From assembly GCA_038230095.1 (NCBI GenBank), contig JBBRNT010000001.1, positions 112,848-176,847 of the forward strand: a DNA stretch of 64,000 nucleotides. Direction: 5' to 3'. The DNA is from Candidatus Saccharimonadia bacterium. GTDB lineage: Bacteria > Patescibacteriota > Saccharimonadia > UBA4664 > JBBRNT01. Position numbers and translations under genes: made by a program. Shown here one piece after another: positions 6,143 through 29,278 of the stretch (position 1 is its first letter; each line of letters starts with the position of its first letter). The notes under the pieces were generated by a model. It did not search any database and was not told the origin of the DNA. It was given only the letters and a program-made list of their open reading frames with translations.

Positions 6143-6450
6143 CCAAGGCCATAATATGCTAAAAAGGTTGTTTCACACTGCTACGACGCGTATGATCAGG
6201 GGGATTGTCCATCTAGTCAAAGTAGGTGATCACTCTGATCAGCCGAGTTCTAGAGTTTCCGGCTTCTAAACAGTTCGCACTCTGCAACAGTTATGGCAAT
6301 AAAGCCGGTTGCTCACATCCAATCCACCTAGAGAGTAGGCAAAGCGTCTGCTCCAACGAATCTCTCAGGAGGCATGATGTGGCAATCTAGTCCAAGTATT
6401 TGCTCGATTGATGTTTCTATTGCAACCAGTGGCAAGGGGAGGGGATAGCA

Positions 6451-6717
6451 ATGAGACAACCACGACCGGCCACACGTATTCGGGCCTACCTGCTGGGTAA
6501 GGACCGCTTTCCGGAAGAGCGTACGCTCGAACACATTCAAAAAGCTTGCGCTGGCGACGACTCGATCGAAGCCCTTCAAGTTGAGCTCGATGCACTGGTG
6601 GCGACGGGGCATGTGGTGCGGAGCGGGTTGCTGTACCAGTTGTCCGACGATGAGCGGCATCAGATCATTGAAGACTTCCGAGTAGCCTTGCGCATGCGAG
6701 GGCGTGTCCGCATGTAA
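6451..6717 (+). CDS. small hypothetical protein (88 aa)
   Basis: Strong SD AGGGGAGGGG lies 6 nt before the ATG. Coding-like composition. Confidence 0.5.
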   Translation: MRQPRPATRIRAYLLGKDRFPEERTLEHIQKACAGDDSIEALQVELDALVATGHVVRSGLLYQLSDDERHQIIEDFRVALRMRGRVRM

Positions 6718-6881
6718 TCGTGGGCTCCGTCTGGACCAGGAGTCTAGACGGAGCCCTTCTGCGTCTTAGTCCTTGCGCTGGTCGCACAGGGCTGCTGCTG
6801 CGCCGTCCCTCTAGTTCACCACTCGTCCCCGGGGGCTTTGCTCCTGGGGACTTCTTGTTTGTATCGGGGTATAATTGGCGT

Positions 6882-13052: not shown

Positions 13053-13906
13053 CGGCCGAGCAACACCAGGGTCGTAATACCTGCGAATGTAATAACTATG
13101 CCAGCTACCTGACTGTGGCTGATCCGATCCTTAAGCTTGAAGTGGGCTATTATGGCGAAAACGATGATGCTAGCCGTGACGAGCACTGCCACTATGCTAG
13201 CGGGCCCAGCAGCGTAGCCGTAGACCTCAATATAGCTGGTAACACCTGTGAGAAGGCCATACCACAGTAGATTGGCGTGGCCTTTTCTAGGCCAAAGGCG
13301 ACGTCGCTGCCGTCTTGCCACTACCAAGAGAGTACTCAAGCCGATGATAACGATAATGAGAATATCTAGATACCAGCCGGTATGGTTCACTACGTACTTG
13401 TTCATAGCATTGCCAACGCCATAAAGTAGCGCTGAGACTATGGCTGCTACCGTGCTCAGACCAGGCCGGCCACCCGCTCTAAGGCGTTTGAAATTGACCG
13501 AGCAGAGCAGGGCGCCGAAGAATGTGAGCGCGAGAGCGGCCCACTGTGTGGGTCTGAGGTGTTCACCGATAAATATAACTGCCAGGATGACCACGATGGC
13601 GCTACTGCTGCTGACGATTGTCTGGTGGGCAGAGGCGTTACCGTGAGTGTAGGAGTAGTTTGAAAGAAAGAAAGCGCTAACCATACAGAGACTGGCCGCT
13701 AGCAGAAAAAGCGACACTATCGGGGATAGGCTGGCCCAGGGGATATGTCTGGTCGGCAGCAGCACAAGGGCTACTACTCCGGCTATAGCATAAGACCAGA
13801 TGCTCGCTAGTAATGGGCTATTGGAGCGGCTGGCAAAGGTGCCAAAGAGCGACGCTACGCCGTAGGCCACCATGCAAACAAGACCGCAGATAATCGCAAT
13901 AGACAT
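13049..13906 (-). CDS. EamA/DMT-family membrane transporter (about 10 TM)
   Basis: Two repeated 5-TM halves of hydrophobic helices typical of the EamA family. Confidence 0.7.
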   Translation of the reverse strand: MSIAIICGLVCMVAYGVASLFGTFASRSNSPLLASIWSYAIAGVVALVLLPTRHIPWASLSPIVSLFLLAASLCMVSAFFLSNYSYTHGNASAHQTIVSSSSAIVVILAVIFIGEHLRPTQWAALALTFFGALLCSVNFKRLRAGGRPGLSTVAAIVSALLYGVGNAMNKYVVNHTGWYLDILIIVIIGLSTLLVVARRQRRRLWPRKGHANLLWYGLLTGVTSYIEVYGYAAGPASIVAVLVTASIIVFAIIAHFKLKDRISHSQVAGIVITFAGITTLVLLGR

Positions 13907-13980
13907 GTATTCAGCTTAGCATGCCACTTATGCTAAACTAGGCCTCGCTTTCCAGGTATAATTGATGCATAGGAGTTACT

Positions 13981-14871
13981 ATGCCAGAAGGGCCAGAAGT
14001 AGAAACAATACGACGTGGGCTGTCGGAGACCATTGTGGGGCAGAGGATTGCCCGGATAGACGTCCTAACGCCGAAAACGTTTGATCTGCCAGCGGGCTTC
14101 ATCGATGAAGTTACACGGGGACAGGAGGTGCTGCTGGTGGAGCGGCTGGCCAAGGTACTTATCTGGCACCTGGCCAACCAGTACTCGCTGCTATTCCATC
14201 TGAAGATGACAGGCCAGGTGGTGCTGGAGCGGGCTGGTGGCAAGCGCTATGCTGGCGGCCACCCCAGCGACTCCATGGCTCATGAGCTGCCAGATAAAAC
14301 GACGCGGGTGGTGTTTGCGCTGGAGTCGGGGGATACCGTGTACTTTAATGACATGCGGAAGTTTGGTTGGGTGAAGCTGATGCCGACAGCCGATATTACT
14401 AATGATGAGCTTATTGCGCGCCTCGGCCCCGAGCCCCTGAGCCCAGCCTTTACACTGGTGGGCTTTGCAGCAAAGGTGGCTCGGCACAAGGGGGCACCGA
14501 TAAAGGCAGTGATCCTAGACCAGTCGACGGTGTCTGGTGTGGGCAATATCTATGCGGATGAGAGCCTACACCTTGCCAAGATCCACCCCACCCGGACCGG
14601 TGGCGACCTGACTAAGGCTGAGGTAAAGCGCCTCCATGAGGCCATAATTGCAATAATTACCCTGGGGATAGAGCACGGCGGCACGAGCTTTTCCAGCTAT
14701 GTAAATAGCTTTGGGGGGACTGGAAACTATCTAGACCATGCACGCGTTTTCAGGCGTGAGGGAGAGCCCTGCCCGGTATGCGGTACAACGATTGTGAAGA
14801 CCAGGGTGGGTGGCCGTGGGACGCATACCTGTCCGGTGTGTCAGCCAGTGCCCAAACTACGTCGTAAATAG
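13981..14871 (+). CDS. mutM: formamidopyrimidine-DNA glycosylase
   Basis: N-terminal MPEGPEVE, the H2TH region, and C-terminal zinc finger CPVCG...CPVCQ. Confidence 0.92.
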   Translation: MPEGPEVETIRRGLSETIVGQRIARIDVLTPKTFDLPAGFIDEVTRGQEVLLVERLAKVLIWHLANQYSLLFHLKMTGQVVLERAGGKRYAGGHPSDSMAHELPDKTTRVVFALESGDTVYFNDMRKFGWVKLMPTADITNDELIARLGPEPLSPAFTLVGFAAKVARHKGAPIKAVILDQSTVSGVGNIYADESLHLAKIHPTRTGGDLTKAEVKRLHEAIIAIITLGIEHGGTSFSSYVNSFGGTGNYLDHARVFRREGEPCPVCGTTIVKTRVGGRGTHTCPVCQPVPKLRRK

Positions 14872-14890
14872 AAAGCGGCCCGGACAAGTA

Positions 14891-14918
14891 AATGTCCGGG
14901 CCGAATGCTTCCGCTGCT
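14891..14918. terminator. bidirectional terminator hairpin between convergent genes
   Basis: CGGCCCGGACA-AGTAAA-TGTCCGGGCCG. The U-rich tail is on the minus-strand side (CTTTCTATTT). Confidence 0.6.
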
Positions 14919-14926
14919 TCATGTGC

Positions 14927-15454
14927 TCAGGGTGTGAGTAGACTACCCGTACCCTGACAGTACGCCTCGACGTCGGCCAGAAGGCCGGCGGGGGCTACCG
15001 GCTTGGCCAGGGCGGCCAGTTCGGTGTACTTGTCGCCGAGCCACTGGGCTGCTCCCACGAGCTGCTGGCGGCCAAGGCCGCTGACGACACCGACCGAGCT
15101 GGTTTCCAGGGCGCAGTACTGGTAGGTAATGGTGCCCAGCTGGCCGGCGCTGTTGCCGGCGAAGGCTGTCAGCCTGGCGTCCACTGCCTGTTGCCAGGCG
15201 CCACGATTGAACGTGGCAATGTCTAGCTGCTGGGTGGTGGTGGCCGTCTGCTGAGCTGGGGCGGTCGAGCTAGTTCCGCCCCGGAGGGCAGCGCCCAAGA
15301 GTGGCAGGAGCACGAGGCCGACGATGATCAGCCAGGTGGGGATGCGTCGACGCTTGGAGGCCCAGTGCTGTCGGTATGGCGTGGTGGGGGCGATGACCGG
15401 GATGACTGTAGCCCGGGCGGTGCCCGGCGGGGTGGGGCTCGTTGTGGTGCTCAT
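14927..15454 (-). CDS. hypothetical membrane-anchored protein (single TM plus extracytoplasmic domain)
   Basis: ATG at 15454 is preceded by AGGAGG. The longer ORF to 15583 lacks an SD. One TM segment (WLIIVGLVLLPLLGAAL). Confidence 0.5.
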   Translation of the reverse strand: MSTTTSPTPPGTARATVIPVIAPTTPYRQHWASKRRRIPTWLIIVGLVLLPLLGAALRGGTSSTAPAQQTATTTQQLDIATFNRGAWQQAVDARLTAFAGNSAGQLGTITYQYCALETSSVGVVSGLGRQQLVGAAQWLGDKYTELAALAKPVAPAGLLADVEAYCQGTGSLLTP

Positions 15455-15801
15455 GGTGACCTCCTGGTCGGGTAGGGCCACTTCGGATGAAGTAGCGGAG
15501 AGCTTCTCAGCGGATAATCTTGCGATTACCCGCAAAAAGCTCTCTGCAACAGGCTGTGAAAGGACAATGACGTATATTAGCACAATAACTATATATTGTC
15601 AATAGTTATCACCAAGAAATGGTGACGGCTCGAACAAGTATTGTTCGGGCGCGTGCGCTCAGGCAATGAGTGGGCGCGCGGTGGTGGATGGGTTCATAGC
15701 GCTTCCTAACAGAATATTTCAAGCTGCTCCGAGTGGACCCTCGTTCGAAGGAGGACCTGCCAACATTCGACCTGGTCTCTAGATTGACCTAAACTGAGTT
15801 T

Positions 15802-16731
15802 ATGATCTTTTTCTTTCATGGGCCGAACCAATATGCCATCAAGAAGCAGCTGCAGAGTATGCGGCAGGCTTTTGTGGCGAAGAACGGAGCAGATTTCGGC
15901 ATTGAGCAGCTTGACGGAGCCGGCGTGGACCCCAAGCGCTTGCCCGAGCTACTACAGGCGGCGCCGTTCCTAGCGAACTCACGGCTGGTTATTCTGGAAG
16001 GACTGGGGAAGAATAAGCCGGCGACAGAGGTGGCGCTGACGCTACTGGCGAAGATTCCGGACACCACCGTGGCAGTGTTTGCGGACACAGAAGTAGACCA
16101 GCGAACGAGCTGGTTTAAGATCCTGTCGACGGAGGCTAAGGTGGTGAAGTTTGATCTGTTGGAAGGCTCACAGCTAAGTAGCTGGATTAAGCGTACCGCG
16201 GAGGAGCAGGGCGGGCGTATTGAGCGACCAGGTGTAGATGCTCTTGCGGCAGCCTGTGGACCGGACCAGTGGCGGCTGGAGCAGGAGATACAGAAGCTGG
16301 TGAGTTATGCCCCGGATATTACCGAAGAGACGGTGAAGCTCCTGGTGGAGACCACCGTAGAGCAATCCATATTTGAGCTGGTGGAGGCAATTACGAGCGG
16401 CAAGACCAGTAAGGTACTTACCATGTACCGCGAGCTGATTCGGCAGCGAGTAAATGAATTCTATCTACTCACCATGGTGCAGTGGCAGCTACGAAATCTG
16501 CTATCGGCTAAGGCTGGTGAGGGCCTAAGTAGTAGCGAGCTCGCTAAGCGGGTGAAGATGAGCCCCTACGTGGCGGGTAAGGCCCAGCAGGCTGCCAGGC
16601 GGCTGAGTGTAGAGGATCTAGAAGCGGGGTTCCTGACCTCCCTGGATGCCGAAGTGGCGATGAAGAGTGGGCGACCCCAGCAGGCCTCACTGGAGCAGCT
16701 GCTGTATGATCTATCCACGCGGTTCAGGTAG
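15802..16731 (+). CDS. holA: DNA polymerase III delta subunit
   Basis: N-terminal FFHGPNQYAIKKQL and overall delta-subunit (clamp-loader) architecture. Confidence 0.8.
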   Translation: MIFFFHGPNQYAIKKQLQSMRQAFVAKNGADFGIEQLDGAGVDPKRLPELLQAAPFLANSRLVILEGLGKNKPATEVALTLLAKIPDTTVAVFADTEVDQRTSWFKILSTEAKVVKFDLLEGSQLSSWIKRTAEEQGGRIERPGVDALAAACGPDQWRLEQEIQKLVSYAPDITEETVKLLVETTVEQSIFELVEAITSGKTSKVLTMYRELIRQRVNEFYLLTMVQWQLRNLLSAKAGEGLSSSELAKRVKMSPYVAGKAQQAARRLSVEDLEAGFLTSLDAEVAMKSGRPQQASLEQLLYDLSTRFR

Positions 16732-16935
16732 CTAGTGAGCGTCGGCTTGCTTGATTTGCTCGATCAGGTGGTCTATCTCGCCAATGACGGTGCGGATACG
16801 GGCCAGCTCGCCCTTGGCCAGCCAGGCATTGCCCGGTGTGTGGGCGTAGTCACGCAGGAGCTTGAGGTGCTGGGTGGCCTCAATGGTGAGGTCGTGGCAC
16901 TCTTGGCGTAGGCTGCTGGCATCGGTGGGTTTCAT
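16732..16935 (-). CDS. small hypothetical protein (67 aa)
   Basis: ORF only. Coding-like composition. No recognised domain. Confidence 0.35.
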   Translation of the reverse strand: MKPTDASSLRQECHDLTIEATQHLKLLRDYAHTPGNAWLAKGELARIRTVIGEIDHLIEQIKQADAH

Positions 16936-16983
16936 AGTATCTATTGTATAGGATTGCGACCAGATTGGCGTAATACCAAAAAA

Positions 16984-17004
16984 CCACCCGGCAGGGTGGT
17001 TTTG
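16984..17004. terminator. terminator hairpin downstream of rpsT
   Basis: CCACCC-GGCA-GGGTGG flanked by A/T runs on both strands. Confidence 0.6.
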
Positions 17005-17019
17005 TATCCGTAGGATGGA

Positions 17020-17388
17020 CTACTTCTTGGTGGTTTTCTTGGCGGCTGGTTTCTTGGCAGCGGCTTTAGCCTTGGCCTGAGCTGGTGTAAGCTCCTTTTT
17101 CTTAGGCTTTTCAGCCTTAGGAACGGCACCGGCGGCTTTCTTGAGGCTGGCTACCAGGCGGCTCTTCTTGCGAGCAGCGGTGTTCTTGTGGAGCGTACCC
17201 TTCTTGACGGCGCGGTCAATCTCGGACACAGCAGCCCGCAGAGCTAGGTCGGCAGTCTTGGCGTCGCCGGTAGCGGCAGCCATAACAGCCTTGGTCTCGG
17301 ACTTGATGGCGGCCAAAACTTTCAGGTTGCGACTGCGTCGTACCTTGGTTTGCTTGGCTCGTTTGATGGCGGATTTGATGATTGGCAT
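17020..17388 (-). CDS. rpsT: 30S ribosomal protein S20 with Lys/Ala-rich C-terminal extension
   Basis: MPIIKSAIKRAKQTKVRRSRN... S20 core. It is followed by a roughly 40-aa KKAAGAVPKAEKPKKK...AAKKTTKK tail. Confidence 0.85.
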   Translation of the reverse strand: MPIIKSAIKRAKQTKVRRSRNLKVLAAIKSETKAVMAAATGDAKTADLALRAAVSEIDRAVKKGTLHKNTAARKKSRLVASLKKAAGAVPKAEKPKKKELTPAQAKAKAAAKKPAAKKTTKK

Positions 17389-17598
17389 AGGTTTGAATGT
17401 TTGAATTTAGACTACTGGACTATACCTGATCGTCTGGGCTTTGTAAAGTGTCTCGGGCGCGGTTCGTAGACCGATAGGGGATTATCGGGTACAGTGATCG
17501 AGTATATTGCACGTTCACAATCTGTTTCGGTACAGCTATGTGGCTAGGGGTGACCGCTAGGTAGTTGTACCGAACCATGTAGGGAAAGGGGTGCTGTC

Positions 17599-18444
17599 AT
17601 GGCGCTGCTCAATATTTCAGAAGTCGACCTAATCCAAGCCCTACGGGCGCGGGGTGGCATGTGGGCGCCGGACAAAGGCGAGTACTCAGTAGTGCCAGCG
17701 ATTGTTCGGGCGTTGAAGCCAGCTGATGCACGCCGAGTGATGCGCCTGCTCGTGAGTATGAGGGAGCGGCAGCTCATAGCCATCCCGCTTAGTCGTCGCC
17801 TGCCCAAAGGGGACGGACGATTGCCGCGGGCAGTTTCTAAGCGGGAGGATCCCGACCCAAGCGAGTGGGATGTAGAGTCGGTAACACTCCTGTATGCGGG
17901 GACCAAGATGTACACCCGCCATATGAGTGGCACAGTGCTGGGCCAGCCAGATGCTCTTCCCAAAGTGGCCAAGGAGCCGGAATTGTTTTCGAAAGGCGCT
18001 AAGCCACCGGGTGGAGGTAAGCCGCCCGCTCGGAGGGGCCGGTCGCCCAAGCTACCCGGTGCTGCTGCGCCACCGGCCCAGGAGCCTGCATCACCGCCGC
18101 CGCCTCCTACCGCTCGGCTCAGTAGCCAGCTTGCGCTCAGTGTTCCGCTGTCCGACCCCTATGAGCTGGTAGTGCTGGATCTGTTGCGGGTCCGACCCAT
18201 CAGCTTTGCCGATGATGCGGCAACAGCCGCCTTGCAGCTGCTGGAAACGGTAGGTCTGGAGCTACCAGATGATCGCCAGGTAGCACTCGCTGAGATGAGA
18301 GCTACCCTGAGCGAGCTGGAAGAGGCTGGCGAGATCCGGATTGATTGGCGTCCGAATCTAACCCAGCGCGGTCTGCACCTGCGCACAGCGGGCCGCCGTA
18401 GGCTTTATGCTCACGCGTCTAGGCCACCGGTGTCTGAGTCGTAG
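17599..18444 (+). CDS. hypothetical protein with central Pro-rich linker
   Basis: Strong G/C third-position bias in this frame. A terminator lies immediately downstream. No recognisable domain. Confidence 0.45.
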   Translation: MALLNISEVDLIQALRARGGMWAPDKGEYSVVPAIVRALKPADARRVMRLLVSMRERQLIAIPLSRRLPKGDGRLPRAVSKREDPDPSEWDVESVTLLYAGTKMYTRHMSGTVLGQPDALPKVAKEPELFSKGAKPPGGGKPPARRGRSPKLPGAAAPPAQEPASPPPPPTARLSSQLALSVPLSDPYELVVLDLLRVRPISFADDAATAALQLLETVGLELPDDRQVALAEMRATLSELEEAGEIRIDWRPNLTQRGLHLRTAGRRRLYAHASRPPVSES

Positions 18445-18449
18445 AAACT

Positions 18450-18482
18450 AGCCTGGATCCACAAGGATCCAGGCTTTATCTT
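18450..18482 (+). terminator. Rho-independent terminator
   Basis: AGCCTGGATCC-ACAA-GGATCCAGGCT then TTTATCTT. Confidence 0.65.
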
Positions 18483-18568
18483 ATGATTGTGCTTATGCTA
18501 AGCCGTAATCTTGACAAAAACGCAGTTTCCAGATATGATCACTAATCGTTTTGCGAGAGGTCAATACT

Positions 18569-19741
18569 ATGGAAACAGAACTCACTCCCAAACAACAAGC
18601 GTCCGAAGCCGTCCGCCAAGCGCGGACTATTCTGGTAGCTACGGGTGCACACCCATCGAACGATCAGGTGGCAGCTGTGATTGCGCTCACGTCTATCCTG
18701 CGCAAGTTCGACAAGAAGGTAACGGCAATTATTAGTGATCAGATCCCCCCAGCGCTGAGCTTCCTATCTGGAGAGACCCTAGACCGCAGCCTGAGCGGCC
18801 AGCGCGATTTTATTCTTAAGGTAGATCTGAAAAAGGCCGAAGTCGATAGCCTGAAGTACACCATAGAAGACGGCAAGCTGAATGTGCACATTACCCCGTT
18901 AAAGGGTGGTTTTGCCCCCAGCGACGTTACATTTGCCTACGGTGCGTACAAGTACGATTTGGCCATTGTGCTGGGTGTAGCCACTCGGGCACGTATGGAC
19001 CGCGTATTTACCGACAATCCACAAATAATGGCCGAAGTGCCCATTGTTAATTTTGATTTCCACCGCAGCAATGAGAACTACGGCGCTATCAACCTGATAG
19101 ATGGTAATGCCGCTAGCCTCTGCGAAATGCTGGTGGCCCTGTCTGAGTCACTACAAACTGGCCTCATTGATGAGCCCATAGCTACTGCCTTGCTGACCGG
19201 TATTATTGCCTCGACCGACCGCTTTACAGCTATTCACACAACCCCCAAGTCGCTGACAGTGGCCGCCCAAATGATGGCAGCCGGTGCTAAGCAGCAGCTG
19301 ATAGTCCAGAACCTATACCGCGGTGGTGGCCAGAAGGATGATCGTAAGGATGGTCGTGATCGAGGCCCACGTGATGGCGGTAATGGCGGCCGCCCAGAGC
19401 CAAAGCCAGTAGTGCCCACACCAAGCGCCCCTGAAGTAGTAGAGGAGGCGCCCGTGCTACCCCCTACCCCGGTAATGGTGCCATCGGAAACGCTGACTAT
19501 CCCTAGGGCACCCGAGGCTATACCAGAAACACCAGAATTATCGGAAGACGTGCCGGCCGTGGCTGCACCGAATGAGCTAGTGGCTGATCCAGCACCGTTC
19601 TTCCAGGGCGAGGGTAGTGTCCTGGCAACTCTGCCTGAAGTGCCGGTAGTGACGGCCCAGCCCATACTAGACCCATACCAGGACCCAGCTGTCTTGGCTT
19701 ATACGGCTGAAGTGCATAATACTGTGGGCATAAGCCTGTAG
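18569..19741 (+). CDS. DHH-family phosphoesterase-like protein (NrnA-like fold, degenerate catalytic motifs) with Pro-rich C-terminal tail
   Basis: Overall NrnA-like layout, but the DHH and PDGD motifs are replaced (HPSND, DFHRSNEN). About 100 aa of low-complexity P/E/V tail. ATG at 18569 follows GAGAGG. Confidence 0.7.
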   Translation: METELTPKQQASEAVRQARTILVATGAHPSNDQVAAVIALTSILRKFDKKVTAIISDQIPPALSFLSGETLDRSLSGQRDFILKVDLKKAEVDSLKYTIEDGKLNVHITPLKGGFAPSDVTFAYGAYKYDLAIVLGVATRARMDRVFTDNPQIMAEVPIVNFDFHRSNENYGAINLIDGNAASLCEMLVALSESLQTGLIDEPIATALLTGIIASTDRFTAIHTTPKSLTVAAQMMAAGAKQQLIVQNLYRGGGQKDDRKDGRDRGPRDGGNGGRPEPKPVVPTPSAPEVVEEAPVLPPTPVMVPSETLTIPRAPEAIPETPELSEDVPAVAAPNELVADPAPFFQGEGSVLATLPEVPVVTAQPILDPYQDPAVLAYTAEVHNTVGISL

Positions 19742-19824
19742 TTCTCGGTCGATACCGACGCCCTGCCCTACACTGGGTAGAGCGTCCGAATGGACGTGTG
19801 TACGCCGACAACCTGGAGGAAGAA

Positions 19825-20163
19825 ATGGCAACCTTTCGCGACCAATTTCATACCTGGAATTCCGCTCTGCGGCTGGGTAATGGCGAGGCGCCAACGACGA
19901 CCGAGCGTGTGGCCGGCTGGCGCAGGAGCTGGGTTGATACCCATGAGCTGTTGACAGAATGCAGACTGTCGCCGAAGCAGTGGGACCGCTGCCTGAGCTG
20001 GGAGACTCGGCTGAGTCACATCATCGCCGACTGGGAGCGCCGGCTCAAGCTGGAGCCGACTGGCCCGGCGCCCACAATCACGCCTCAGTATGGCTGGTCC
20101 ATGTCGCTGGACCTGTGGTTGCTGCGTCGGTATGTGACTCGCCTACACAGAACCAAGCATTGA
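19825..20163 (+). CDS. hypothetical protein (Trp/Arg-rich)
   Basis: ATG is preceded by GGAGGAAGAA. No known domain recognised. Confidence 0.35.
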   Translation: MATFRDQFHTWNSALRLGNGEAPTTTERVAGWRRSWVDTHELLTECRLSPKQWDRCLSWETRLSHIIADWERRLKLEPTGPAPTITPQYGWSMSLDLWLLRRYVTRLHRTKH

Positions 20164-20284
20164 CCTGGCGGCATCAGGCTAATACTGCTACCACTGTGGC
20201 AACAGCCAACATGCCTAAGGCCTACGCCCTCAGGATTACCTGGGGGCGTTTCATTTCTAGCGGCTCCAATGCTACACTCTGCCC

Positions 20285-20962
20285 ATGACTCACGCCTACA
20301 ACGGCCTGCTACTGGTCGACAAACCAGTAGGGCCATCTTCCTTCGATATTATTCGGCAACTGCGCCAGATCACTGGCTTTCGTAAGATTGGCCATGCTGG
20401 CACCCTGGACCCCCTGGCAAGTGGGCTCATGCTGATGCTATTTGGTCCAGCCTGTAAGAAGGCGGAGATGCTGACCAAGCTGGACAAGAGCTATGTGGCC
20501 CAGGTGGTACTGGGGGCAAACTCGACGACTGGGGATATGGAGGGTGAGAAGCTAGCCGTATCGGATAGGGAGCCAAGCGGGGAAGAGGTCCTAGCGGCGC
20601 TAGCGCAGCTACAGGGGGAAATAACACAAATTCCATCACAATATTCGGCAATTAAGATTAATGGCCAGGAGGCCTACAAGCTGGCACGAGCTGGGAAGAT
20701 CGTGGAAATGCCCAGTCGCCAGGTGACGGTAAGAACATTTAAGTTACTAGGCTTCCACCATACCCATCTGGAAATTGAGTGGAATGTGTCGTCTGGTACC
20801 TATATTCGCAACCTGGGAGAAGACCTGGGAGGGTTGCTGGGCACCGGTGCGCATCTGGCCGGTTTACGGCGTACGGTGGTAGGGGAGTATAGGCTAGAGC
20901 AGGCAATGGTGATTGCAGGGGCAGGAGCTGAGGATATTCAGCAGCATTTATTGACTATTTAG
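20285..20962 (+). CDS. truB: tRNA pseudouridine(55) synthase
   Basis: LLLVDKPVGPSSFDIIRQLRQITGFRKIGHAGTLDPLASGLMLMLFG contains the catalytic Asp motif. Confidence 0.92.
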   Translation: MTHAYNGLLLVDKPVGPSSFDIIRQLRQITGFRKIGHAGTLDPLASGLMLMLFGPACKKAEMLTKLDKSYVAQVVLGANSTTGDMEGEKLAVSDREPSGEEVLAALAQLQGEITQIPSQYSAIKINGQEAYKLARAGKIVEMPSRQVTVRTFKLLGFHHTHLEIEWNVSSGTYIRNLGEDLGGLLGTGAHLAGLRRTVVGEYRLEQAMVIAGAGAEDIQQHLLTI

Positions 20963-21055
20963 CCGTTTTATGCTAATATAGTCGTTATCGCTTCGCACTT
21001 GCGTCGTGAGCACCAGACGCTGACCCGAGAGGGCAGCTATCGAGAAAGACCATCC

Positions 21056-21445
21056 ATGACCCGATTCCTCACCTGCAGCAACAACCACACCATCGCCGTC
21101 ATCAGCGCGGCCGACCGGGAGCTGCTCCGGCAGCGCAACACGACCGAGAGCTTCATCGCTTCCGGGGGTGTGATCTTCACCTTCGTGAGCCCCGACATTT
21201 GGGAGCAGCTGGCGGTGTTCTCACACGGCATCCCCTTCCACACCGGCACCACCGAGGACATGGCGGTCCTACTCGCCGGCCATGAGGTCGACAGCGACTT
21301 CTTCCACGTCCCGTTCTCGAACTCGTTCGAGTACGACCCTGGCGAGAACGGTCAGCTGGAGCGGATGTACCGCACCACGCTCCGTCAGGCCATCGAGGGC
21401 TTCGGCCTGCGCCGCGACCTGCCTCTGGCTACCACTCGGGTCTGA
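21056..21445 (+). CDS. hypothetical protein in GC-rich cassette
   Basis: Markedly C-ending codons compared with neighbours. Followed by a GC hairpin repeat. Confidence 0.45.
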   Translation: MTRFLTCSNNHTIAVISAADRELLRQRNTTESFIASGGVIFTFVSPDIWEQLAVFSHGIPFHTGTTEDMAVLLAGHEVDSDFFHVPFSNSFEYDPGENGQLERMYRTTLRQAIEGFGLRRDLPLATTRV

Positions 21446-21461
21446 TCCCGTCCTCTCCATC

Positions 21462-21495
21462 TGTCGTTCCGGCCCCCTTCGGGGGCCGGGCGGCA
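21462..21495. repeat. GC-rich hairpin repeat copy 1 (CCGGCCCCC-TTCG-GGGGGCCGG core)
   Basis: Lies immediately after the stop of the upstream CDS. About 90 percent identical to the copy at 22043-22076. Confidence 0.7.
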
Positions 21496-21622
21496 AGCTA
21501 CCTTGTGATCTGATAAGAGACCAAACTCTAACCAGATCGCAAGAACTGGCCAACAGATTTATTATCTGCTGGAGCACTTCGACAATCCACCGGCCCGCTA
21601 TGGCCCCGTCTCTGAGGAGAAC

Positions 21623-22037
21623 CATGAATACTACTCGAACCCCGCAAGTTGGCGACTTGGTGGCTATCACGGGCGAACTGCCGAGCTTCGGCGTTGTTAC
21701 TCGATTTGATGGTGACCGGTTCTTCTTCAAGGACCCTGGTAGCAACCTCGATGTCGCCATGGCTCCGGCTCCCGATGAGCCCTACGTCGTGATCTCGGTC
21801 GACGAGGCCAAAAGCTTTCTCGAAAAGCTACTGGACGCCATTCTTACCGACACGGCCTACCTGGGCGAAGGCTTCGCCAACTGGATGCGAGAGCAGTTCA
21901 AGGTTGCGATTCCGGTGCGACCCGTGCTCGATGAGAAGTCCATGTCATACTTCATGACACTGGCTGTCGCGACCTGGCCGGGGGACAGTGTCCGCATGGC
22001 GCTCATGCTCTGGGCGCTGTTCGGCTGGCCAGTCTGA
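21623..22037 (+). CDS. hypothetical protein in GC-rich cassette
   Basis: ATG follows GAGGAGAACC. Same codon bias as the preceding small gene. Confidence 0.45.
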
Positions 22038-22042
22038 TCACC

Positions 22043-22076
22043 GTCGTTCCGGCCCCTTCGGGGGTCGGGACGGCAA
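22043..22076. repeat. GC-rich hairpin repeat copy 2
   Basis: GTCGTTCCGGCCCCTTCGGGGGTCGGGACGGCAA, directly after the stop of the upstream CDS. Confidence 0.7.
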
Positions 22077-22165
22077 TACCATCCTCATGCTTTGATCTAG
22101 TTTGCAAAACCTAGATGAGCGCGTGAGGGGAGAGAGGGTTGCCAACAGGAGGGTAATCTGCTAGC

Positions 22166-22444
22166 ATGTGTCCTGTAATGCTAAAAACTGAAGTCAAAAC
22201 TAAAGTAATCGGCTCGATGCAAACACACAAAAAGGACACTGGTTCGCCAGAGGTCCAGATTGGTATTTTCACAGAGCAGATCAAGCAGCTCACGTCTCAC
22301 TTGCAGACCCATAAGAAAGACGAGCATTCTCGCCGCGGCCTCCTGAAAATGGTTGGTAAGCGTCGTAGTTTGCTGGACTATCTGAACAAGAAAGATCACA
22401 AAAAATACCAAGAAGTGATCAAGAAGCTGGAACTCCGTCGCTAA
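22166..22444 (+). CDS. rpsO: 30S ribosomal protein S15
   Basis: S15 core ...[54 protein letters not shown] lies 8 nt before ATG 22166. Confidence 0.9.
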
Positions 22445-22647
22445 GACGTCCCGTTTCTGCCTGTTCAGCCCCACATTATGTCATCCAGATCGAAGCAGAG
22501 AGCTCCTTGGAGCCCTCGACTGCGCTCAGGATGGATCCTGGGAGAGTACCAATACGTTAATTATGGCGGCCCGTAAGTAGCAGAGTTTTGAGATTAACAC
22601 CATTAATCTTGTATCCCTGAGACCTACTCGCCCCAGAATAGGAGCAT

Positions 22648-24768
22648 ATGAATCAAGATATAATCAACCCTTTTGGCGCTAAGACGCTGAAGTTCTCGGC
22701 GCAGTTCTGCGGTCGCGAACTTACCATTGAAACCGGTAATATGGCTTTCCTGGCGGCAGGCGAAGTGACTGTGAGCTATGGTGACGCCGTAGTTCTCGGC
22801 ACGGCCGCAGTCTCAAACGCGCCTCGTCCCGGCATAGACTTCTTCCCCCTCATGGTCGACTACGAGGAGCGTATGTATGCCTCGGGTAAGATTAGCGGTA
22901 GCCGCTTCATGAAGCGTGAGGGTCGGGCCAGCGAGCACGGTACTCTGGCTTCGCGCCTGATCGACCGCCCCATCCGCCCACTGTTCCCCGCAGGCTACCG
23001 TAACGATGTCCAGGGTGTAGCCACCGTCTTATCCGTGGACCCAGACTTCGGCACCAACATCCTTGGTATTATTGCCGTATCTGCCGCCCTTAGCATTAGT
23101 GGTGCGCCATTTGAGGGCCCAGTAGCGGGCGTGAGTATTGGCCTGGTTGATGGCGAGCTGGTAGCTTACCCAACTACCGAGCAAATGAAGACCTCCGAGC
23201 TGGATCTGACTGTGGCTGGAACCAAGGACGCGATTATGATGGTCGAAGCCGGCGCCAACCAGGTGGACGAAGAGCTTATGGTAAAGGCTATTGAGCTGGC
23301 TCATCAGGCCTGGCAGCCAGTCATTAAGCTCCAGGAGGAGTTGGTGGCCGCCCTCAAGCCCCAGCTGAAGCCATTTGAGCTTATTGAAACCGACAAAGAG
23401 CTCATTAAGAAAATCCAGAAATTTGTAGACGGCAAGCTTATCCCAGTCCTGCGCCATGAGGACCACTACGTCCACATAAATCACCCAGCCTTCCGAGCGC
23501 TGAAGGATGAAGTAATTGCCGAGCTTGGTGAAGCGTATCCAGATACAGCGGCTTTGACGACGGCCTACTACGAAGTGATTGATATTGAAGTCCGCCGCGG
23601 CATTCTGGAAGACAATACTCGCCCAGACGGTCGCAAGCCCGATGAGATCCGTCCGCTATCGCACCAGGTAGGCATACTGCCACGGGTGCATGGCTCGGCG
23701 CTCTTCACGCGCGGCATTACCCAGGTGCTCAATACGACCACGCTGGCTTCGACTAGCTACGCCCAGCTGATTGATACCATGGAAGAGGACACTACCAAGC
23801 GCTATATGCACCACTACAACTTCCCACCCTACGCGACTGGCGAGGTGCGCCCCATGCGCTCACCGGGCCGCCGAGAGATTGGCCATGGTGCCTTGGCTGA
23901 GCGGGCCCTGCTTGCCGTGATTCCATCGGTTGAAGACTTCCCCTATACCATCCGAACTGTCAGCGAAGCTATTAGCTCAAATGGTTCAACTTCTATGGCC
24001 TCAGTCTGTGGCAGCACCATGTCGCTGATGGATGCGGGCGTACCTATTACCGCACCTGTTGCTGGTATTGCCATGGGGCTGGTCATGGGGGATGACGGTC
24101 ACTTTGTAGTGCTCAGCGACGTCGCTGGCGCCGAGGACCACGGTGGGGACATGGACTTCAAGGTGGCTGGTACCGCTACCGGTGTCACTGCCCTGCAAAT
24201 GGACATTAAGATTAAGGGTATTACCCCAGCCGTCATGCGCGAAGCGCTGGTGAAGGCCAAAGTGGGCCGGATCAAGATTCTAGATAGCATGCTGGCAGTT
24301 ATTGCCGAGCCGCGCCCAGAGATGAGCCCCTACGCTCCTCGTATCTACAAAATGCAGATCAACCCAGACAAGATTAAGATTGTTATTGGTAAGGGTGGCG
24401 ACACTATTAATAAGATTATTGCCGAAACCGGTGTGGAGATAGATATACAGGACTCTGGCCTGGTCATGATTGCCGCCAATGATGGTGAAAGCGCCAAGGC
24501 AGCTATTGAGTGGATCGAGAGCCTAACAGCCGAGGCTGTGGTGGGCAAGATCTATACCGGCCGCGTGGTGAAGATTATGGAATTCGGTGCCTTTGTGAAC
24601 ATTATGCCGGGTAAGGACGGTCTGGTGCACATCTCTCAACTAGCCGACAAGCGGGTAGAAAAGGTTGAAGACGTTGTTGAAGTTGGTGATACAATACAGG
24701 TAAAGCTTATGGAGATAGACGACAAAGGTCGCATGAACCTGAGCAAAAAGGCAGCCGACAACGCCTAG
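22648..24768 (+). CDS. pnp: polynucleotide phosphorylase
   Basis: Two RNase PH domains plus KH and S1 domains, with the classic rpsO-pnp linkage. Confidence 0.95.
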   Translation: MNQDIINPFGAKTLKFSAQFCGRELTIETGNMAFLAAGEVTVSYGDAVVLGTAAVSNAPRPGIDFFPLMVDYEERMYASGKISGSRFMKREGRASEHGTLASRLIDRPIRPLFPAGYRNDVQGVATVLSVDPDFGTNILGIIAVSAALSISGAPFEGPVAGVSIGLVDGELVAYPTTEQMKTSELDLTVAGTKDAIMMVEAGANQVDEELMVKAIELAHQAWQPVIKLQEELVAALKPQLKPFELIETDKELIKKIQKFVDGKLIPVLRHEDHYVHINHPAFRALKDEVIAELGEAYPDTAALTTAYYEVIDIEVRRGILEDNTRPDGRKPDEIRPLSHQVGILPRVHGSALFTRGITQVLNTTTLASTSYAQLIDTMEEDTTKRYMHHYNFPPYATGEVRPMRSPGRREIGHGALAERALLAVIPSVEDFPYTIRTVSEAISSNGSTSMASVCGSTMSLMDAGVPITAPVAGIAMGLVMGDDGHFVVLSDVAGAEDHGGDMDFKVAGTATGVTALQMDIKIKGITPAVMREALVKAKVGRIKILDSMLAVIAEPRPEMSPYAPRIYKMQINPDKIKIVIGKGGDTINKIIAETGVEIDIQDSGLVMIAANDGESAKAAIEWIESLTAEAVVGKIYTGRVVKIMEFGAFVNIMPGKDGLVHISQLADKRVEKVEDVVEVGDTIQVKLMEIDDKGRMNLSKKAADNA

Positions 24769-24859
24769 CCCTAGATAGTTCGACTGGCCCGGATACCATC
24801 TGGGCCGGATCGAGGGATCTAGTTCGCGGATTCCTGAACCGATGAGGGACAGAGAAGGT

Positions 24860-25444
24860 ATGACCACGGCCACGAGTAAGCAAAACCAGCTGGAGCAAAT
24901 CGCCAAGCGAATCGAAGCGGACAATCCATGTCCCGATTTGCGGGCGACCGCGACCCAGCTGGTCCCTGGTGATGGAGACTCGGATGCCCAGATAGTGCTC
25001 ATTGGCGAGGCCCCCGGGGCCAAGGAAGATGAGCAAGGCGTGCCATTTGTAGGCGCTGCCGGTAAGCTGCTGGACGAGATGCTAGCTACCATCCACCTAG
25101 CGCGCACCGACATTTACATTACCAATATTGTGAAATACCGACCGCCCAGTAACCGCGATCCGTTGCCAGAGGAGATAGCCGCATTTATGCCGTATCTCGA
25201 GGCGCAACTGGCTGTCATACAGCCAAAGCTAGTGGTATTTCTTGGGCGCCATTCCATGAGCGCGTTCTTGCCCGAGCTGAAGATAAGCGAAGTACACGGC
25301 CAGCCTAAGCGCCTAGGGGGCCAGGTCTACTTGCCGCTGTACCATCCGGCTGCCGCGCTCTACAACGGTGGCATGCGCCAAACCCTGTTCGACGACTTCG
25401 CCAAAATTCCGGCCATTCTTGACCTGATCGAAAGCCGAAAGTAG
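24860..25444 (+). CDS. uracil-DNA glycosylase superfamily protein (family 4-like)
   Basis: GEAPGAKEDEQGVPFVGAAGKLLDEML and a later HP...NIVKYRPP motif. Only one Cys is present, so there is no obvious 4Fe-4S ligand set. Confidence 0.75.
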   Translation: MTTATSKQNQLEQIAKRIEADNPCPDLRATATQLVPGDGDSDAQIVLIGEAPGAKEDEQGVPFVGAAGKLLDEMLATIHLARTDIYITNIVKYRPPSNRDPLPEEIAAFMPYLEAQLAVIQPKLVVFLGRHSMSAFLPELKISEVHGQPKRLGGQVYLPLYHPAAALYNGGMRQTLFDDFAKIPAILDLIESRK

Positions 25445-25505
25445 CTCTCAATCGCAATGCAATTATTTTCAAGTAACACGACCCAACCGGGTCAGAAAAG
25501 GACAT

Positions 25506-27650
25506 ATGAATCCAGAACAACCAACTAACACACCCGCACCAAGCCCACGACCGGCAGGAGGTGACGACTTATTCCCTGGCGGTATACCCAACGTACCAAG
25601 CCGTTCGGCACGACCGCAACGCTCTAATTCCGGGCGTGGCGGCCAGAGCCCACGCCCCGGTAGCCAGCCACAGGGCATGACAAACCGACCGAACGCCCCG
25701 CGTCCCGTAGGCGCCGACGGACTACCAATTGCTCCTGGAACTGGCGGCCAGAGCCCACGCCCAGCCGGCCAAGGCCAGGGCCAAGGTGGTGGCCAGCGTC
25801 CTGGCGGGCGTGGTACCAACTCCACACCCAAAGGCACACGCTTCCGCAATGGTCAGCGTAGTAAGCCACTGCCAACTGGTAAGGAAATTCCAGTTAACAA
25901 GACATTGTTTAACGGTGCCGGCGGTGCGCAACAGACCCAGATAAAGGAGCGCGACGCCAACACCTTTACCAAGGTACCAAAGCTGAAGGTAATTCCACTG
26001 GGTGGCTTGGGTGAGATTGGTAAGAACATGATGGCCGTGGAGTACGAGAACGACATTGTGATCATCGATATGGGCTTTGCCTTCCCGGACGAGTCCCAGC
26101 CCGGCATTGACTACATTATTCCAGATACAACCTATCTGGATAAGAACAAGCATAAGATCCGCGGCATTATCATTACCCACGGCCACATGGACCACATTGG
26201 TGCTGCCGGCTACATGATCCCCAAGTATCCTGTGCCCATCTATGGCTCCAAGCTGAGCCTAGCCTTTGTTGAAAAGCAGATTGGCGAGTTTAAGATACAC
26301 CAGCCCAAGTGGATTGTCCTAGACCCCGACAAGCACGAGCGCGTGCAGCTTGGCGTGTTCAATATTGAGCTGGTTCGCGTTACCCATACCATATCCGACT
26401 CCACGGCAGTGGTACTGCGTACGCCTATTGGAACTCTAATTAACACCGGTGACTGGCGTCACGACACCCAGCCGCTGGACAACAAGCCCATGGACTTCCC
26501 TCGACTCGAAGAGATTGGTAAGGAAGGCGTACTCTTGCTCATGAGCGACAGTACTAGCTGTGACCGGGCTGGCCACAACCCCTACGAGCGCGATCTGACA
26601 GCCTCGATTGACGATCTGTTCAGCCGAGCCCAGGCTCGCATCATTATCTCGGCATTCTCCAGCTCTATCACCCGCGTGCAGCTCATTATTGATGCCGCCG
26701 CCAAGGCTAATCGTAAGCTAGCCCTCGTAGGCCGCTCCACGCTGGCCAATGTAGAGCTGTGTGTGAAGCTCGGCTACATTAAGATTCCACCTGGCCTGCT
26801 AATGCGCGTGCAGGACATTACCCGCCAGCCCGATGAGCAGATTGTGATCCTGAGCACCGGCTCTCAGGGCGAGGAGAACTCAGCACTGGTGCGCATGTCC
26901 ACTGGCGACCACCAACAGGTCAAAATTAAGCCTGGCGATACCATCATCTTCAGCTCCAGTGTAATTCCCGGTAATGAGATTTCCGTGGTACGCCTCATCG
27001 ATAACCTGATGCGTGAGGGTGCCAATGTCTTTGCAGGCTCAACCCAGGGCATTAAGCACCACGGCCCAGTGCACGTGGGCGGTCACGCCTGGCGCGAGGA
27101 CGTCGGCGAGCTTGTAGCTTTGGTAAAGCCCAAGTACTACATGCCGATCCACGGAGAGTTCCACCACCTGGTTTACAGCGCCGAAGTGGCGGTAGAGAAC
27201 GGTGTAGCTCCTGCCAATACGTTTGTCCTAGACAATGGTGATGTGCTAGAGATAACCCCCAATGGTGCCAAGCGCGGCGAGCGCGTGCCCAGCGGCGTAG
27301 TGCTGATCGACGGCTCTGGAGTGGGTGACGTAGAGCAAGTGGTTCTACGCGATCGTCTCACCATGTCTGGTGACGGCATATTCATGATCCTAGCCACAGT
27401 GGACCGCAAGACCGGTAAGCTGCTTACCAGCCCAGACATTATCTCCCGTGGGTTCATCTACATGAAGGACAACGAGGAGCTGATCGGCCGCGCTCGGGCC
27501 GAGATTCGAAAGGCCTTTGAGAACCGTAGTGTACGCGAGCCCGATGACTGGGTGAAGTTCAAGCTACGCCTGCGCGACGACATTGGTGACTTGCTCTACA
27601 AGCGCACCAAGCGCAATCCGATGATTATTCCGGTAATAAACGAAGTATAG
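25506..27650 (+). CDS. rnj: ribonuclease J (beta-CASP metallo-beta-lactamase) with long disordered N-terminal extension
   Basis: ITHGHMDHIGA motif, beta-CASP region and C-terminal domain. The first roughly 160 aa are rich in G/P/Q/R/S. Confidence 0.9.
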   Translation: MNPEQPTNTPAPSPRPAGGDDLFPGGIPNVPSRSARPQRSNSGRGGQSPRPGSQPQGMTNRPNAPRPVGADGLPIAPGTGGQSPRPAGQGQGQGGGQRPGGRGTNSTPKGTRFRNGQRSKPLPTGKEIPVNKTLFNGAGGAQQTQIKERDANTFTKVPKLKVIPLGGLGEIGKNMMAVEYENDIVIIDMGFAFPDESQPGIDYIIPDTTYLDKNKHKIRGIIITHGHMDHIGAAGYMIPKYPVPIYGSKLSLAFVEKQIGEFKIHQPKWIVLDPDKHERVQLGVFNIELVRVTHTISDSTAVVLRTPIGTLINTGDWRHDTQPLDNKPMDFPRLEEIGKEGVLLLMSDSTSCDRAGHNPYERDLTASIDDLFSRAQARIIISAFSSSITRVQLIIDAAAKANRKLALVGRSTLANVELCVKLGYIKIPPGLLMRVQDITRQPDEQIVILSTGSQGEENSALVRMSTGDHQQVKIKPGDTIIFSSSVIPGNEISVVRLIDNLMREGANVFAGSTQGIKHHGPVHVGGHAWREDVGELVALVKPKYYMPIHGEFHHLVYSAEVAVENGVAPANTFVLDNGDVLEITPNGAKRGERVPSGVVLIDGSGVGDVEQVVLRDRLTMSGDGIFMILATVDRKTGKLLTSPDIISRGFIYMKDNEELIGRARAEIRKAFENRSVREPDDWVKFKLRLRDDIGDLLYKRTKRNPMIIPVINEV

Positions 27651-27666
27651 TCTGACGTATTAGAAG

Positions 27667-27687
27667 AGGCCCGTAAGGGCCTTTTTT
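27667..27687 (+). terminator. Rho-independent terminator after RNase J
   Basis: AGGCCC-GTAA-GGGCCT then T6. Confidence 0.8.
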
Positions 27688-27688
27688 A

Positions 27689-28960
27689 ATGTCTGGCACT
27701 ACTGGTAAGATAGCAACGATCATGCACTCATATGTAGATAAATATTGGACTGGTTTCTCGCCGCGTCTGCGGAAAATGGTGCTGTACTATGCCTCAGCTG
27801 GGCTGGTCTTTTGGTATGCCGTAGAGAAGCTCTTTCTTACAACCCAGCTCCATTTGAATCCTGTACAGCTGGTTATATTAATCAATGTAGCGTACATAGC
27901 CCACTTCATCATTGATATACCATCAAGCGTACTGGCCGACCGCTGGAGCCGGAACAAGACTCTGGCACTCAGTCTGGTATCTGCTTGGATTGCCGCGCTA
28001 ATAGGCGGCCTTGCCAACGGTTTCTGGATGTATGTATTTGTAGCTATCTTCTGGGCGGGGGCAAGTGCTCTCCATGGTGGTGTAGCCGATGCCCTGGTTT
28101 ACGATATATGCAAAGATGAAGGGAGCGACGAGACCTATGCAGTGACAGGCAATCGCATGAACAATGTGTTTATCGCAGCTATTGCCTCCGCTCTAATCCT
28201 AGGGGGCATCATTGCCCATTTCGGTGGTCTTCGGGCGCCGTATCTGGCAACGCTCATCTTCTTCCTGCCGAGTGCCTGGCAAATGTGGACGCTGAAAGAG
28301 CCTAGCTTCCATCGTAAGGACCAGCATGACTCAAGCCGCGGGCATATTATGGAGTCATTGCGTACGTTCAAACGTAGCCCCCAGCTCCTGTTCGTTGCAG
28401 TGATGATGGTGATTAACAACGGTGTGATTGCCATACCCCTTTATGAGTTCTCGCAATTGGTTTTTGCCAATGCAGGGCTTGCGCTCATTGGTATTGGCAT
28501 TGCGACGGCTACGACAAACACCATCCTGACGCTACTGATGACTGGTGTAACGATCCGTCTCCAGACCCGAGCGGGGTGGCTTTTCCCAATCTGGTTCGTG
28601 GTGACGGCGCTAGCACTATTTGCAGTTCGGTTTATTGGGCATTGGCCGCTTCTGGTGGCGCTCTACGGCGTGGGCGTGGCGGCTCAGGCTATGACCAGCC
28701 GCTGGCTTGCCATTGGCTTGCAACAGAACGTGGCTAGTAGTGAGCGTGCGGCTACTAGCTCGGTTGTGGGGACGGGGTCCAATGTAGCGTGGTTAGCTAT
28801 AAGCCCGCTTGTTGCCATTGCCTTGTTCCGGTTCGGGCCGGTGGGTGGCTCACAGGTATCGGCAGCATTTGCGCTGGTGGCTGCCGTCCTAGCTGCAGCT
28901 ACTTGGCTTTACTTCCGCAGTAGGTTTACTGGCCTGTTTCATAAGTCGGAGGCCCTATGA
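27689..28960 (+). CDS. MFS transporter
   Basis: About 12 predicted TM helices in two halves. The first ATG abuts the terminator T-run, so an alternative start at 27722 is possible. Confidence 0.7.
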   Translation: MSGTTGKIATIMHSYVDKYWTGFSPRLRKMVLYYASAGLVFWYAVEKLFLTTQLHLNPVQLVILINVAYIAHFIIDIPSSVLADRWSRNKTLALSLVSAWIAALIGGLANGFWMYVFVAIFWAGASALHGGVADALVYDICKDEGSDETYAVTGNRMNNVFIAAIASALILGGIIAHFGGLRAPYLATLIFFLPSAWQMWTLKEPSFHRKDQHDSSRGHIMESLRTFKRSPQLLFVAVMMVINNGVIAIPLYEFSQLVFANAGLALIGIGIATATTNTILTLLMTGVTIRLQTRAGWLFPIWFVVTALALFAVRFIGHWPLLVALYGVGVAAQAMTSRWLAIGLQQNVASSERAATSSVVGTGSNVAWLAISPLVAIALFRFGPVGGSQVSAAFALVAAVLAAATWLYFRSRFTGLFHKSEAL

Positions 28961-29220
28961 GCCAGGGTGTTGAACGCTTCTTATCGACTACTGGATTGGT
29001 ACAAATCTGGCCTTCAAAACAGGCAGATAAGCAGCTGGTATGTGAGTACTTGGCAACGAAATTTGATTCTCAACAGATATATAACGAGCAATCTATAAAT
29101 AATGTGCTCAAAGCCTGGCACACGTTTAATGACTGGCCACTGCTGCGCCGGGAGCTGTATGAACGAGGCCTTTTGAGCCGTAATAATGATGGCTCACAAT
29201 ACCAGGTCGTAGGACACTGA
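28957..29220 (+). CDS. small hypothetical protein (87 aa)
   Basis: ATGA overlap with the MFS gene. Coding-like composition. Confidence 0.4.
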   Translation: MSQGVERFLSTTGLVQIWPSKQADKQLVCEYLATKFDSQQIYNEQSINNVLKAWHTFNDWPLLRRELYERGLLSRNNDGSQYQVVGH

Positions 29221-29278
29221 GGCGCTAGCTGATAGCGCACAGGGATAAAATATTCAGCCCGGGTGGTAAGATGGACGT

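Follow-up and report, generated by a model that had tools for sequence, protein, structure and literature searches.

Two small genes between truB and rpsO

Between truB and rpsO of a Saccharimonadia contig (JBBRNT010000001.1), two small genes, here named orfA and orfB, are each followed by a copy of the same spacer module (M1 after orfA, M2 after orfB). Coordinates refer to the analyzed 64-kb stretch of this contig, hereafter the window, which has a GC content of 54.7%. The flanking genes were assigned by Pfam matches to TruB_N (truB, 20285–20962; 8e-47) and Ribosomal_S15 (rpsO, 22166/22178–22444; 1.5e-33). Relatives of the TruB protein (54–68% identity) came from metagenome-assembled genomes of Saccharimonadia (TM7, Candidate Phyla Radiation, CPR). 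A search for exact matches to the S15 protein returned none. An independent Logan assembly of SRR19962015 (L001, 6.8 kb) reproduced the junctions around orfA and orfB with the gene order holA, rpsT, ORFan, nrnA, ORFan, truB, orfA, orfB, rpsO, and a chimera is therefore unlikely. The features of the locus are as follows (GC3, GC content at third codon positions; UTR, untranslated region; L037, a sister contig described below).

20951–20979, + strand: promoter-like sequence P1, TTGACT-17-TAATAT with upstream TG, overlapping the truB stop codon
21019–21037, + strand: small stem-loop in the orfA 5′ UTR, GCTGACCCGAGAGGGCAGC, holding a GACC(C)GAR motif
21056–21445, + strand: orfA, 129 aa, start codon in agreement with the N-terminus of its protein family, GC3 0.892
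21462–21495, + strand: hairpin 1 of module M1, 15 bp, UUC loop, –29.4 kcal/mol (z = –4.3), no U-tract
21497–21550, + strand: hairpin 2 of module M1, CTTGTGATCTG...CAGATCGCAAG, 79% identical to the orthologous L037 module
21546–21575, + strand: degenerate copy of the rpsO promoter in M1, TGGCCA ... TATTAT/CTGCTGGAGC, from module alignments
21624–22037, + strand: orfB, 137 aa, ORFan, with a GAGGAG Shine–Dalgarno sequence at 21614–21619
22043–22074, + strand: hairpin 1′ of module M2, 14 bp, UUCG loop, –28.8 kcal/mol (z = –5.1), no U-tract
22082–22129, + strand: hairpin 2′ of module M2, predicted fold
22139–22167, + strand: rpsO promoter, TTGCCA-17-TAGCAT with TG, 3′ end of module M2

An earlier note on this DNA had placed two genes at this site and described both as sharply GC-richer than their neighbours, with almost exclusively C/G-ending codons. 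Both open reading frames (ORFs) were confirmed, but the second starts at 21624 rather than 21623; the frame given in the note was wrong and has a GC3 of only 0.43. Composition was compared with 55 genes of the window (GC3 mean 0.606, sd 0.055, maximum 0.749). For orfA the description held, with a GC of 0.644 (z = +2.9), a GC3 z-score of +5.2 and a protein without Lys and with 10 Arg. It did not hold for orfB (GC 0.585, z = +1.1; GC3 0.717, z = +2.0; Lys/Arg 5/6). Thus, only orfA is a strong compositional outlier and orfB is marginal. Local GC climbed to 0.62–0.63 at the truB–rpsO region. Scored by a codon model that was trained on the window's core genes, the annotated frames of orfA (–3.92 per codon) and orfB (–3.97) resembled truB (–3.93), and both therefore look coding, with host codon preferences respected. 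The other frames of orfB scored worse (–4.20 to –4.81), and all non-annotated frames of orfA were clearly worse as well. ORF length was not significant as evidence for coding, as 17–34% of shuffles reached such lengths. A comparison of orfA with orfB led us to reject the idea that they are paralogues.

The earlier note had also reported a near-identical element of ~34 nt after each stop codon, with a 9-bp stem and a UUCG loop in both copies. We detected one direct repeat family (21463–21496 and 22043–22076, 82% identical ungapped, one indel), whose core CCGGCCCC(C)TTCGGGGG was present at exactly two places in the 64 kb, whereas shuffled sequences gave an expectation of 0.00. The stems turned out to be 14–15 bp long; copy 1 has a UUC triloop, and UUCG is found in copy 2 only. 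Two further statements of the note, that the hairpins lack a U-tail and differ in this from terminators elsewhere in the window, were borne out. A canonical intrinsic terminator joins a GC hairpin to a U-tract of ~7–9 nt, whereas the tails of hairpins 1 and 1′ (AAGCTACCTT and AATACCATCC) hold 2 T in 8 nt and the sequence on their 3′ side runs AAGCTACC... and AATACCAT..., respectively. Canonical A-tract/hairpin/T-tract terminators follow at least seven other genes of the window, one of them being AAAACCACCCTGCCGGGTGGTTTTTT after rpsT.

The repeat itself extends well beyond 34 nt. Alignment of 21430–21625 with 22022–22168 revealed similarity from the stop codon via both hairpins into the promoter, defining a module of ~130 nt (hairpin 1, hairpin 2, promoter) in two copies. 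Similarity starts at the last codon and the stop (GTCTGATC) and continues through hairpin 1 to hairpins 2 and 2′, which differ in sequence but keep the fold. At the 3′ end lies the promoter, reading TGGCCAACAG...TATCTGCTGGAGC in M1 and TTGCCAACAG...AATCTGCTAGCAT in M2, where it is the rpsO promoter. The locus thus has the layout P1, orfA, (hairpin 1, hairpin 2, promoter), orfB, (hairpin 1′, hairpin 2′, promoter), rpsO. Rfam scans of the region and of the orfA-family loci returned tRNAs only.

P1, which lies close behind truB like the rpsO promoter in relatives with a short truB–rpsO gap, is by its sequence the likely driver of orfA. The degenerate promoter copy in M1 was not called by a consensus scan and presumably drives orfB; at the corresponding position, L037 has TGGTATAAT. 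The rpsO promoter was 85% identical to L037 through the rpsO start and homologous to the promoter of a further relative (L006). The ATG at 22166 chosen by ORF callers for rpsO falls inside the –10 hexamer TAGCAT (22162–22167), and the S15 proteins of relatives align from the ATG at 22178 (MLKTEV...), 10 nt past the –10 element. Therefore, rpsO probably spans 22178–22444 and its predicted mRNA would be near-leaderless.

Elsewhere in the window, the strongest U-less hairpin (GGGCCGTTCGGGAGCGCTAGCTCCCGAACGGCCC, –34.8 kcal/mol) lies at 5555–5588 on the – strand. It adjoins two ORFs (4790–5233 and 5598–6152) that had no Pfam match and whose coding strand was uncertain under the codon model.

The sister locus and the truB–rpsO gap in relatives

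The closest homologue of orfA, P0003, is carried by L037, a 1,145-bp contig of the European Nucleotide Archive from a different sample. This contig runs up to the start of rpsO, which there shares 85% identity with the window. Its order is orfA-family copy 1 (partial, GC3 0.86), hairpin 1, hairpin 2, promoter, copy 2 (P0003, GC3 0.74), hairpin 1′, hairpin 2′, rpsO promoter, rpsO. Compared with the window, M1 was 79%, the M2 hairpin 76% and the promoter with the rpsO start 85% identical. The orfA protein shared 45% identity with copy 1 and 37% with copy 2, and the two copies shared 42% with each other. The content of slot 2 differs, being orfB in the window and an orfA-family paralogue in L037, with the flanking modules retained in both. 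This speaks against the transfer of a two-gene block, each of orfA and orfB being a unit of its own. With 137 aa, orfB and P0003 are equally long but had no similarity in DNA or protein; the lack of DNA similarity ruled out orfB as a frame-shifted derivative of P0003.

As the earlier note had proposed, we searched for further copies of the element. In 582 kb of fetched related DNA, nhmmer with an alignment of the four modules recovered those of the window (two), L001 (two, the same locus re-assembled) and the syntenic L037 (two), and no further copy; scans of IMG/VR with hairpin 1 and hairpin 2 gave no match. Although the sequence of the outer stem varies (e.g., CCGG/CCGG vs CUCA/UGAG), all four copies of hairpin 1 in the window and L037 form 14–17 contiguous pairs (–27 to –31 kcal/mol), which points to selection on hairpin 1 structure.

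The order nrnA–truB–rpsO–pnp was conserved in all of 15 Saccharimonadia loci used for comparison, and none of them had a homologue of orfA or orfB at the truB–rpsO site. The gap measured 46–126 bp, with only the rpsO promoter inside, in six (L002, L003, L005, L008, L039, L044), so that the earlier suggestion of an insertion at this site, in this case a lineage-specific one, is supported. In L007 it spanned 344 bp with a tRNA gene (~6680–6760), and in the remaining loci (L004, L006, L009, L041, L043, L045, L056, L057) it comprised 0.5–1.4 kb with small ORFs. The best candidate cargo ORFs of these large-gap relatives mostly had a GC3 of 0.67–0.83. Cargo ORFs of different genomes were related neither to orfA or orfB nor to one another, and kinship among them was rejected. 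No recombinase was found within ~8 kb of the array, as the earlier note had stated; a Pfam scan of ORFs of at least 120 aa in 12339–30382 returned housekeeping genes only.

In L043, ~2.5 kb are inserted between rpsO and pnp (6512–9004). With this insert and the tRNA in the truB–rpsO gap of L007, neighbouring operon junctions are therefore variable too. Two further ORFans of the window (17599–18444 and 19798–20163), situated between rpsT, nrnA and truB, had no Pfam match and were absent from all related loci; lineage-specific small genes are therefore scattered between core genes here. The second of them has a GC3 of 0.74 and a downstream hairpin at 20224–20249, and at its site an overlapping alternative ORF (19959–20288) was called in the Logan assembly. 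The neighbouring nrnA-like DHH-family protein (18551–19741) carries a Pro/Ala/Glu-rich low-complexity C-terminal extension of ~100 aa (19300–19741), and its relatives align only up to about residue 260–326.

The orfA protein family

A word-indexed search of 5.8 billion proteins yielded self matches only for orfA and orfB. With phmmer, however, 1.84 billion representative proteins contained 23 distant full-length relatives of orfA (E 2e-11 to 1e-3), and a profile search extended the family to at least 71 proteins of ~110–190 aa (typically ~125 aa); the profile scored orfA itself at 125 bits. In the family alignment, FTF, TG and VPFS were invariant, and NN, H, N and E nearly so; the invariant residues are F41, T42, F43, T63, G64, L72, V85, P86, F87 and S88. 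The motifs of the family read NNG..A, P(I/V)FTF, TG..LM..LL.GH.V, VPFSN and FRTTL..A..AFGL. The labelled members came from Candidatus Saccharibacteria, Candidatus Magasanikbacteria and a CPR bin (ACD_17C), and from no other taxa. Searches of Pfam, PHROGs, NCBIfam, PADLOC and PDB sequences with orfA, its family and orfB gave no meaningful match. Neither orfA nor orfB was matched by tblastn in phage and plasmid collections, and IMG/VR scans with the family pattern and with orfB were negative as well. AlphaFold2 run without an alignment produced unusable models (predicted local distance difference test scores of 40 and 48).

In 10 of 11 cases, the GC content of family genes exceeded that of their flanks (+0.04 to +0.17), within surrounding DNA of 34–50% GC; in the extreme case, a gene with a GC3 of 0.87 sat in a Saccharibacteria contig of 46% GC. 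This excess is compatible with lateral movement within the CPR gene pool and gives no pointer to Actinobacteria. Family members were found near a large serine recombinase and a tRNA (L031–L033), in an MmeI restriction-modification island (L035), by a GIY-YIG gene (L036), near ftsK (L061), by a radical-SAM gene (L063) and, for P0075 (L059, 5001–8000), immediately upstream of DUF4446–infB–rbfA. The L059 neighbourhood is the same translation-gene region as that of the window (infB–rbfA–truB–rpsO–pnp), which may be a coincidence. In L031–L033 (6001–8550), P0029 lies beside the recombinase of 583–609 aa, whose ORF was not called in L034; in L031, a tRNA gene (8432–8503) overlaps the 3′ end of the recombinase gene. 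This arrangement looks like an integrative element. No orfB homologue was found near family genes by phmmer in seven loci, and no called neighbour resembled orfB in later loci (10 fetched in all).

Within 130 nt upstream of orfA-family genes, the motif GACC(C)GA(A/G) was seen five times where 0.18 occurrences were expected (P ~1e-6 by Poisson, for a pattern chosen post hoc), with sites in the window (21022–21029), L035 (5922–5965), L028 (5961) and L037 (489). It may be a cis-regulatory element. Two members from different low-GC genomes, P0038 (L028, 5700–6000 and 6420–6560) and P0009 (L036, 700–915 and 1247–1390), have in common a conserved 5′ leader of ~120 nt or more (GTAGCAAATTG.GAGTA...) and, on the 3′ side, ~130 nt of structured sequence with a long-range terminator stem at the end. 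Rfam matched neither region.

Origin of the array and related systems

We consider it rather probable that the locus is an array of two self-contained accessory cassettes in a variable truB–rpsO hot spot of this Saccharimonadia genome. In this view, each cassette is an ORF with the ~130-nt spacer module behind it, in which a long GC hairpin and another hairpin precede a sigma-70-type promoter that would serve the gene downstream. An ancestral orfA-family cassette would have been duplicated in tandem with its 3′ spacer, a state presumably kept in L037, and the copies would then have diverged. In the window lineage, the coding sequence of the second paralogue would have been replaced by orfB via recombination in the conserved spacers or close beside them. 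With the spacer module duplicated in tandem, the matching hairpins would be relics of that duplication, kept by selection as RNA stem-loops. Most likely, they would be 3′-end stem-loops of the cassettes, acting as terminators or as 3′ exonuclease barriers. Whether they end cassette transcripts or shield 3′ ends from exonucleases, the outcome would be an insulated rpsO, served by a promoter of its own.

Several points weigh against this explanation. The event order, duplication followed by replacement, is deduced from a single sister contig of ~1.1 kb. The case for orfB as a gene consists of frame statistics and a Shine–Dalgarno sequence, with no homologue. A taxon label was present in only 4 of the 71 family members, and the extreme GC3 of orfA is not accounted for. 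Furthermore, U-less hairpins are not established terminators, and mycobacterial RNA polymerase ignored them and did not terminate in vitro (PMC3993855).

The earlier note had considered a high-GC donor possible and had likened the hairpins to the I-shaped terminators common in high-GC Actinobacteria. A recent transfer of two genes from a high-GC actinobacterium, plausibly the host of the epibiont, would account for the GC3 of 0.89, the missing Lys and the 10 Arg of orfA, for hairpins without a U-tract, unlike those of at least seven native terminators, and for the absence of the cassette from more distant relatives. In addition, Saccharibacteria live on Actinobacteria. We nevertheless regard this origin as improbable, since the only labelled family members are CPR and members reside in DNA of 34–50% GC. 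The 24 phmmer matches among 1.84 billion proteins speak against it as well, and no actinobacterial label appeared in 10 looked-up clusters or 71 profile matches. Phage, plasmid and IMG/VR collections held no match, the host codon model fits both genes and orfB is no compositional outlier. Moreover, the genes are separate units with a different gene in slot 2 of L037, and the hairpins, common to L037, are fused to host-type promoters, including that of rpsO, in a locally duplicated module. I-shaped structures have been reported outside Actinobacteria too, and U-less hairpins failed to terminate the mycobacterial enzyme in vitro, so that they are no donor marker. The story of a host-to-epibiont transfer from Actinobacteria into a TM7 genome was removed as unsupported. 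An assembly chimera or a contaminating high-GC fragment in the Saccharimonadia contig would explain the local GC rise to 0.62–0.63. Its probability is close to nil, given that the independent Logan assembly has the same order from holA through rpsO, that L037 from another sample has the same array abutting rpsO and that the spacers carry host-type promoters.

Being small, comparable in size and neighbours on one strand, orfA and orfB could also be a functional pair, for instance toxin–antitoxin or effector–immunity. This is quite improbable in view of their separate promoter and hairpin units, the paralogue that takes the partner position in L037, the lack of an orfB-like neighbour at ten family loci (direct phmmer on seven) and the lack of PADLOC, Pfam or NCBIfam matches. 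A dispersed mobile repeat of the repetitive extragenic palindromic (REP) or miniature inverted-repeat transposable element (MITE) type might have landed after both genes. REP elements stabilise upstream mRNA, and a GC-rich, U-less palindrome in 3′ UTRs is REP-like. Little room is left for this explanation: the 64 kb hold two copies, each syntenic with one in L037, no other turned up in IMG/VR or in the 582 kb of related DNA, and the similarity continues into non-palindromic flanks and the promoter. Only a very faint chance falls to an integron-like array in which the hairpins are attC-type sites of a site-specific recombinase. It would fit the layout of ORFs with imperfect palindromes, the variable ORFs between conserved spacers and a GTCGTT found 1 nt past P1 (20981–20986) and again where each hairpin begins on its 5′ side. 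However, GTCGTT is followed by CCGG and not RRRY, and the near-perfect stems of 32–34 nt have no R″/L″–L′/R′ boxes, GTTRRRY core or extrahelical bases. Both cassettes carry promoters of their own, the copies number just two, and the Pfam-scanned genes of 12339–30382 included no integrase or recombinase.

For the array of accessory cassettes, a further step is conceivable, though unlikely: the spacers could form a recombinase-free scaffold for the exchange of small, fast-diverging, GC-rich accessory genes beside rpsO. In its support, spacers are 76–79% identical between the sister genomes, while the intervening ORFs share 45% identity in protein or are wholly replaced. If so, the orfA family would be a CPR-wide, laterally moving single-gene unit with a near-consensus promoter of its own and a GACC(C)GAR leader, GC-richer than all hosts looked at, and might serve the epibiont lifestyle. 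Across Saccharimonadia, the truB–rpsO gap emerges as a place where small genes have been inserted repeatedly. The analysis also defines a protein family (~125 aa, at least 71 members) that had no name before, all labelled members being CPR and GC lying consistently above that of the host DNA. Conserved spacers with replaced ORFs offer a small example of accessory-gene turnover in reduced genomes without mobile-element machinery.

Among known systems, the cassettes of integrons share the alternation of variable ORFs with conserved imperfect palindromes. Unlike attC sites (~55–140 nt), the present elements come without an integrase, attC architecture or core sites, and the two units have promoters of their own. 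With REP-type 3′ stabilisers and I-shaped terminators, they share a strong, U-less GC hairpin 5–17 nt past the stop codon, in which compensatory changes keep the pairing. Here, the element is not dispersed (two copies), and the stems of hairpin 1 measure 14–17 bp against 6–11 bp in the canonical terminators of the window. Like other uncharacterised small-protein families restricted to CPR, orfA has no Pfam or NCBIfam entry and aligns over its full length, in this case to at least 71 proteins of ~125 aa; its family is unnamed, and members are GC-richer than their surroundings in 10 of 11 genes. With chromosomal hot-spot islets of accessory genes, the locus shares constant core flanks, a content ranging from nothing to ~1.4 kb of unrelated small ORFs and the lack of an adjacent recombinase. 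In composition, orfA departs strongly from the host (GC3 z = +5.2) and orfB marginally (z = +2.0), yet both fit the host codon model as well as truB. Such an islet is a known kind of arrangement, and the finding is real and fairly ordinary. The locus stands apart from typical islets in that its cargo is one to three tiny genes, parted in this lineage by a conserved, duplicated hairpin–hairpin–promoter spacer, with gene replacement apparently exactly between the spacers.

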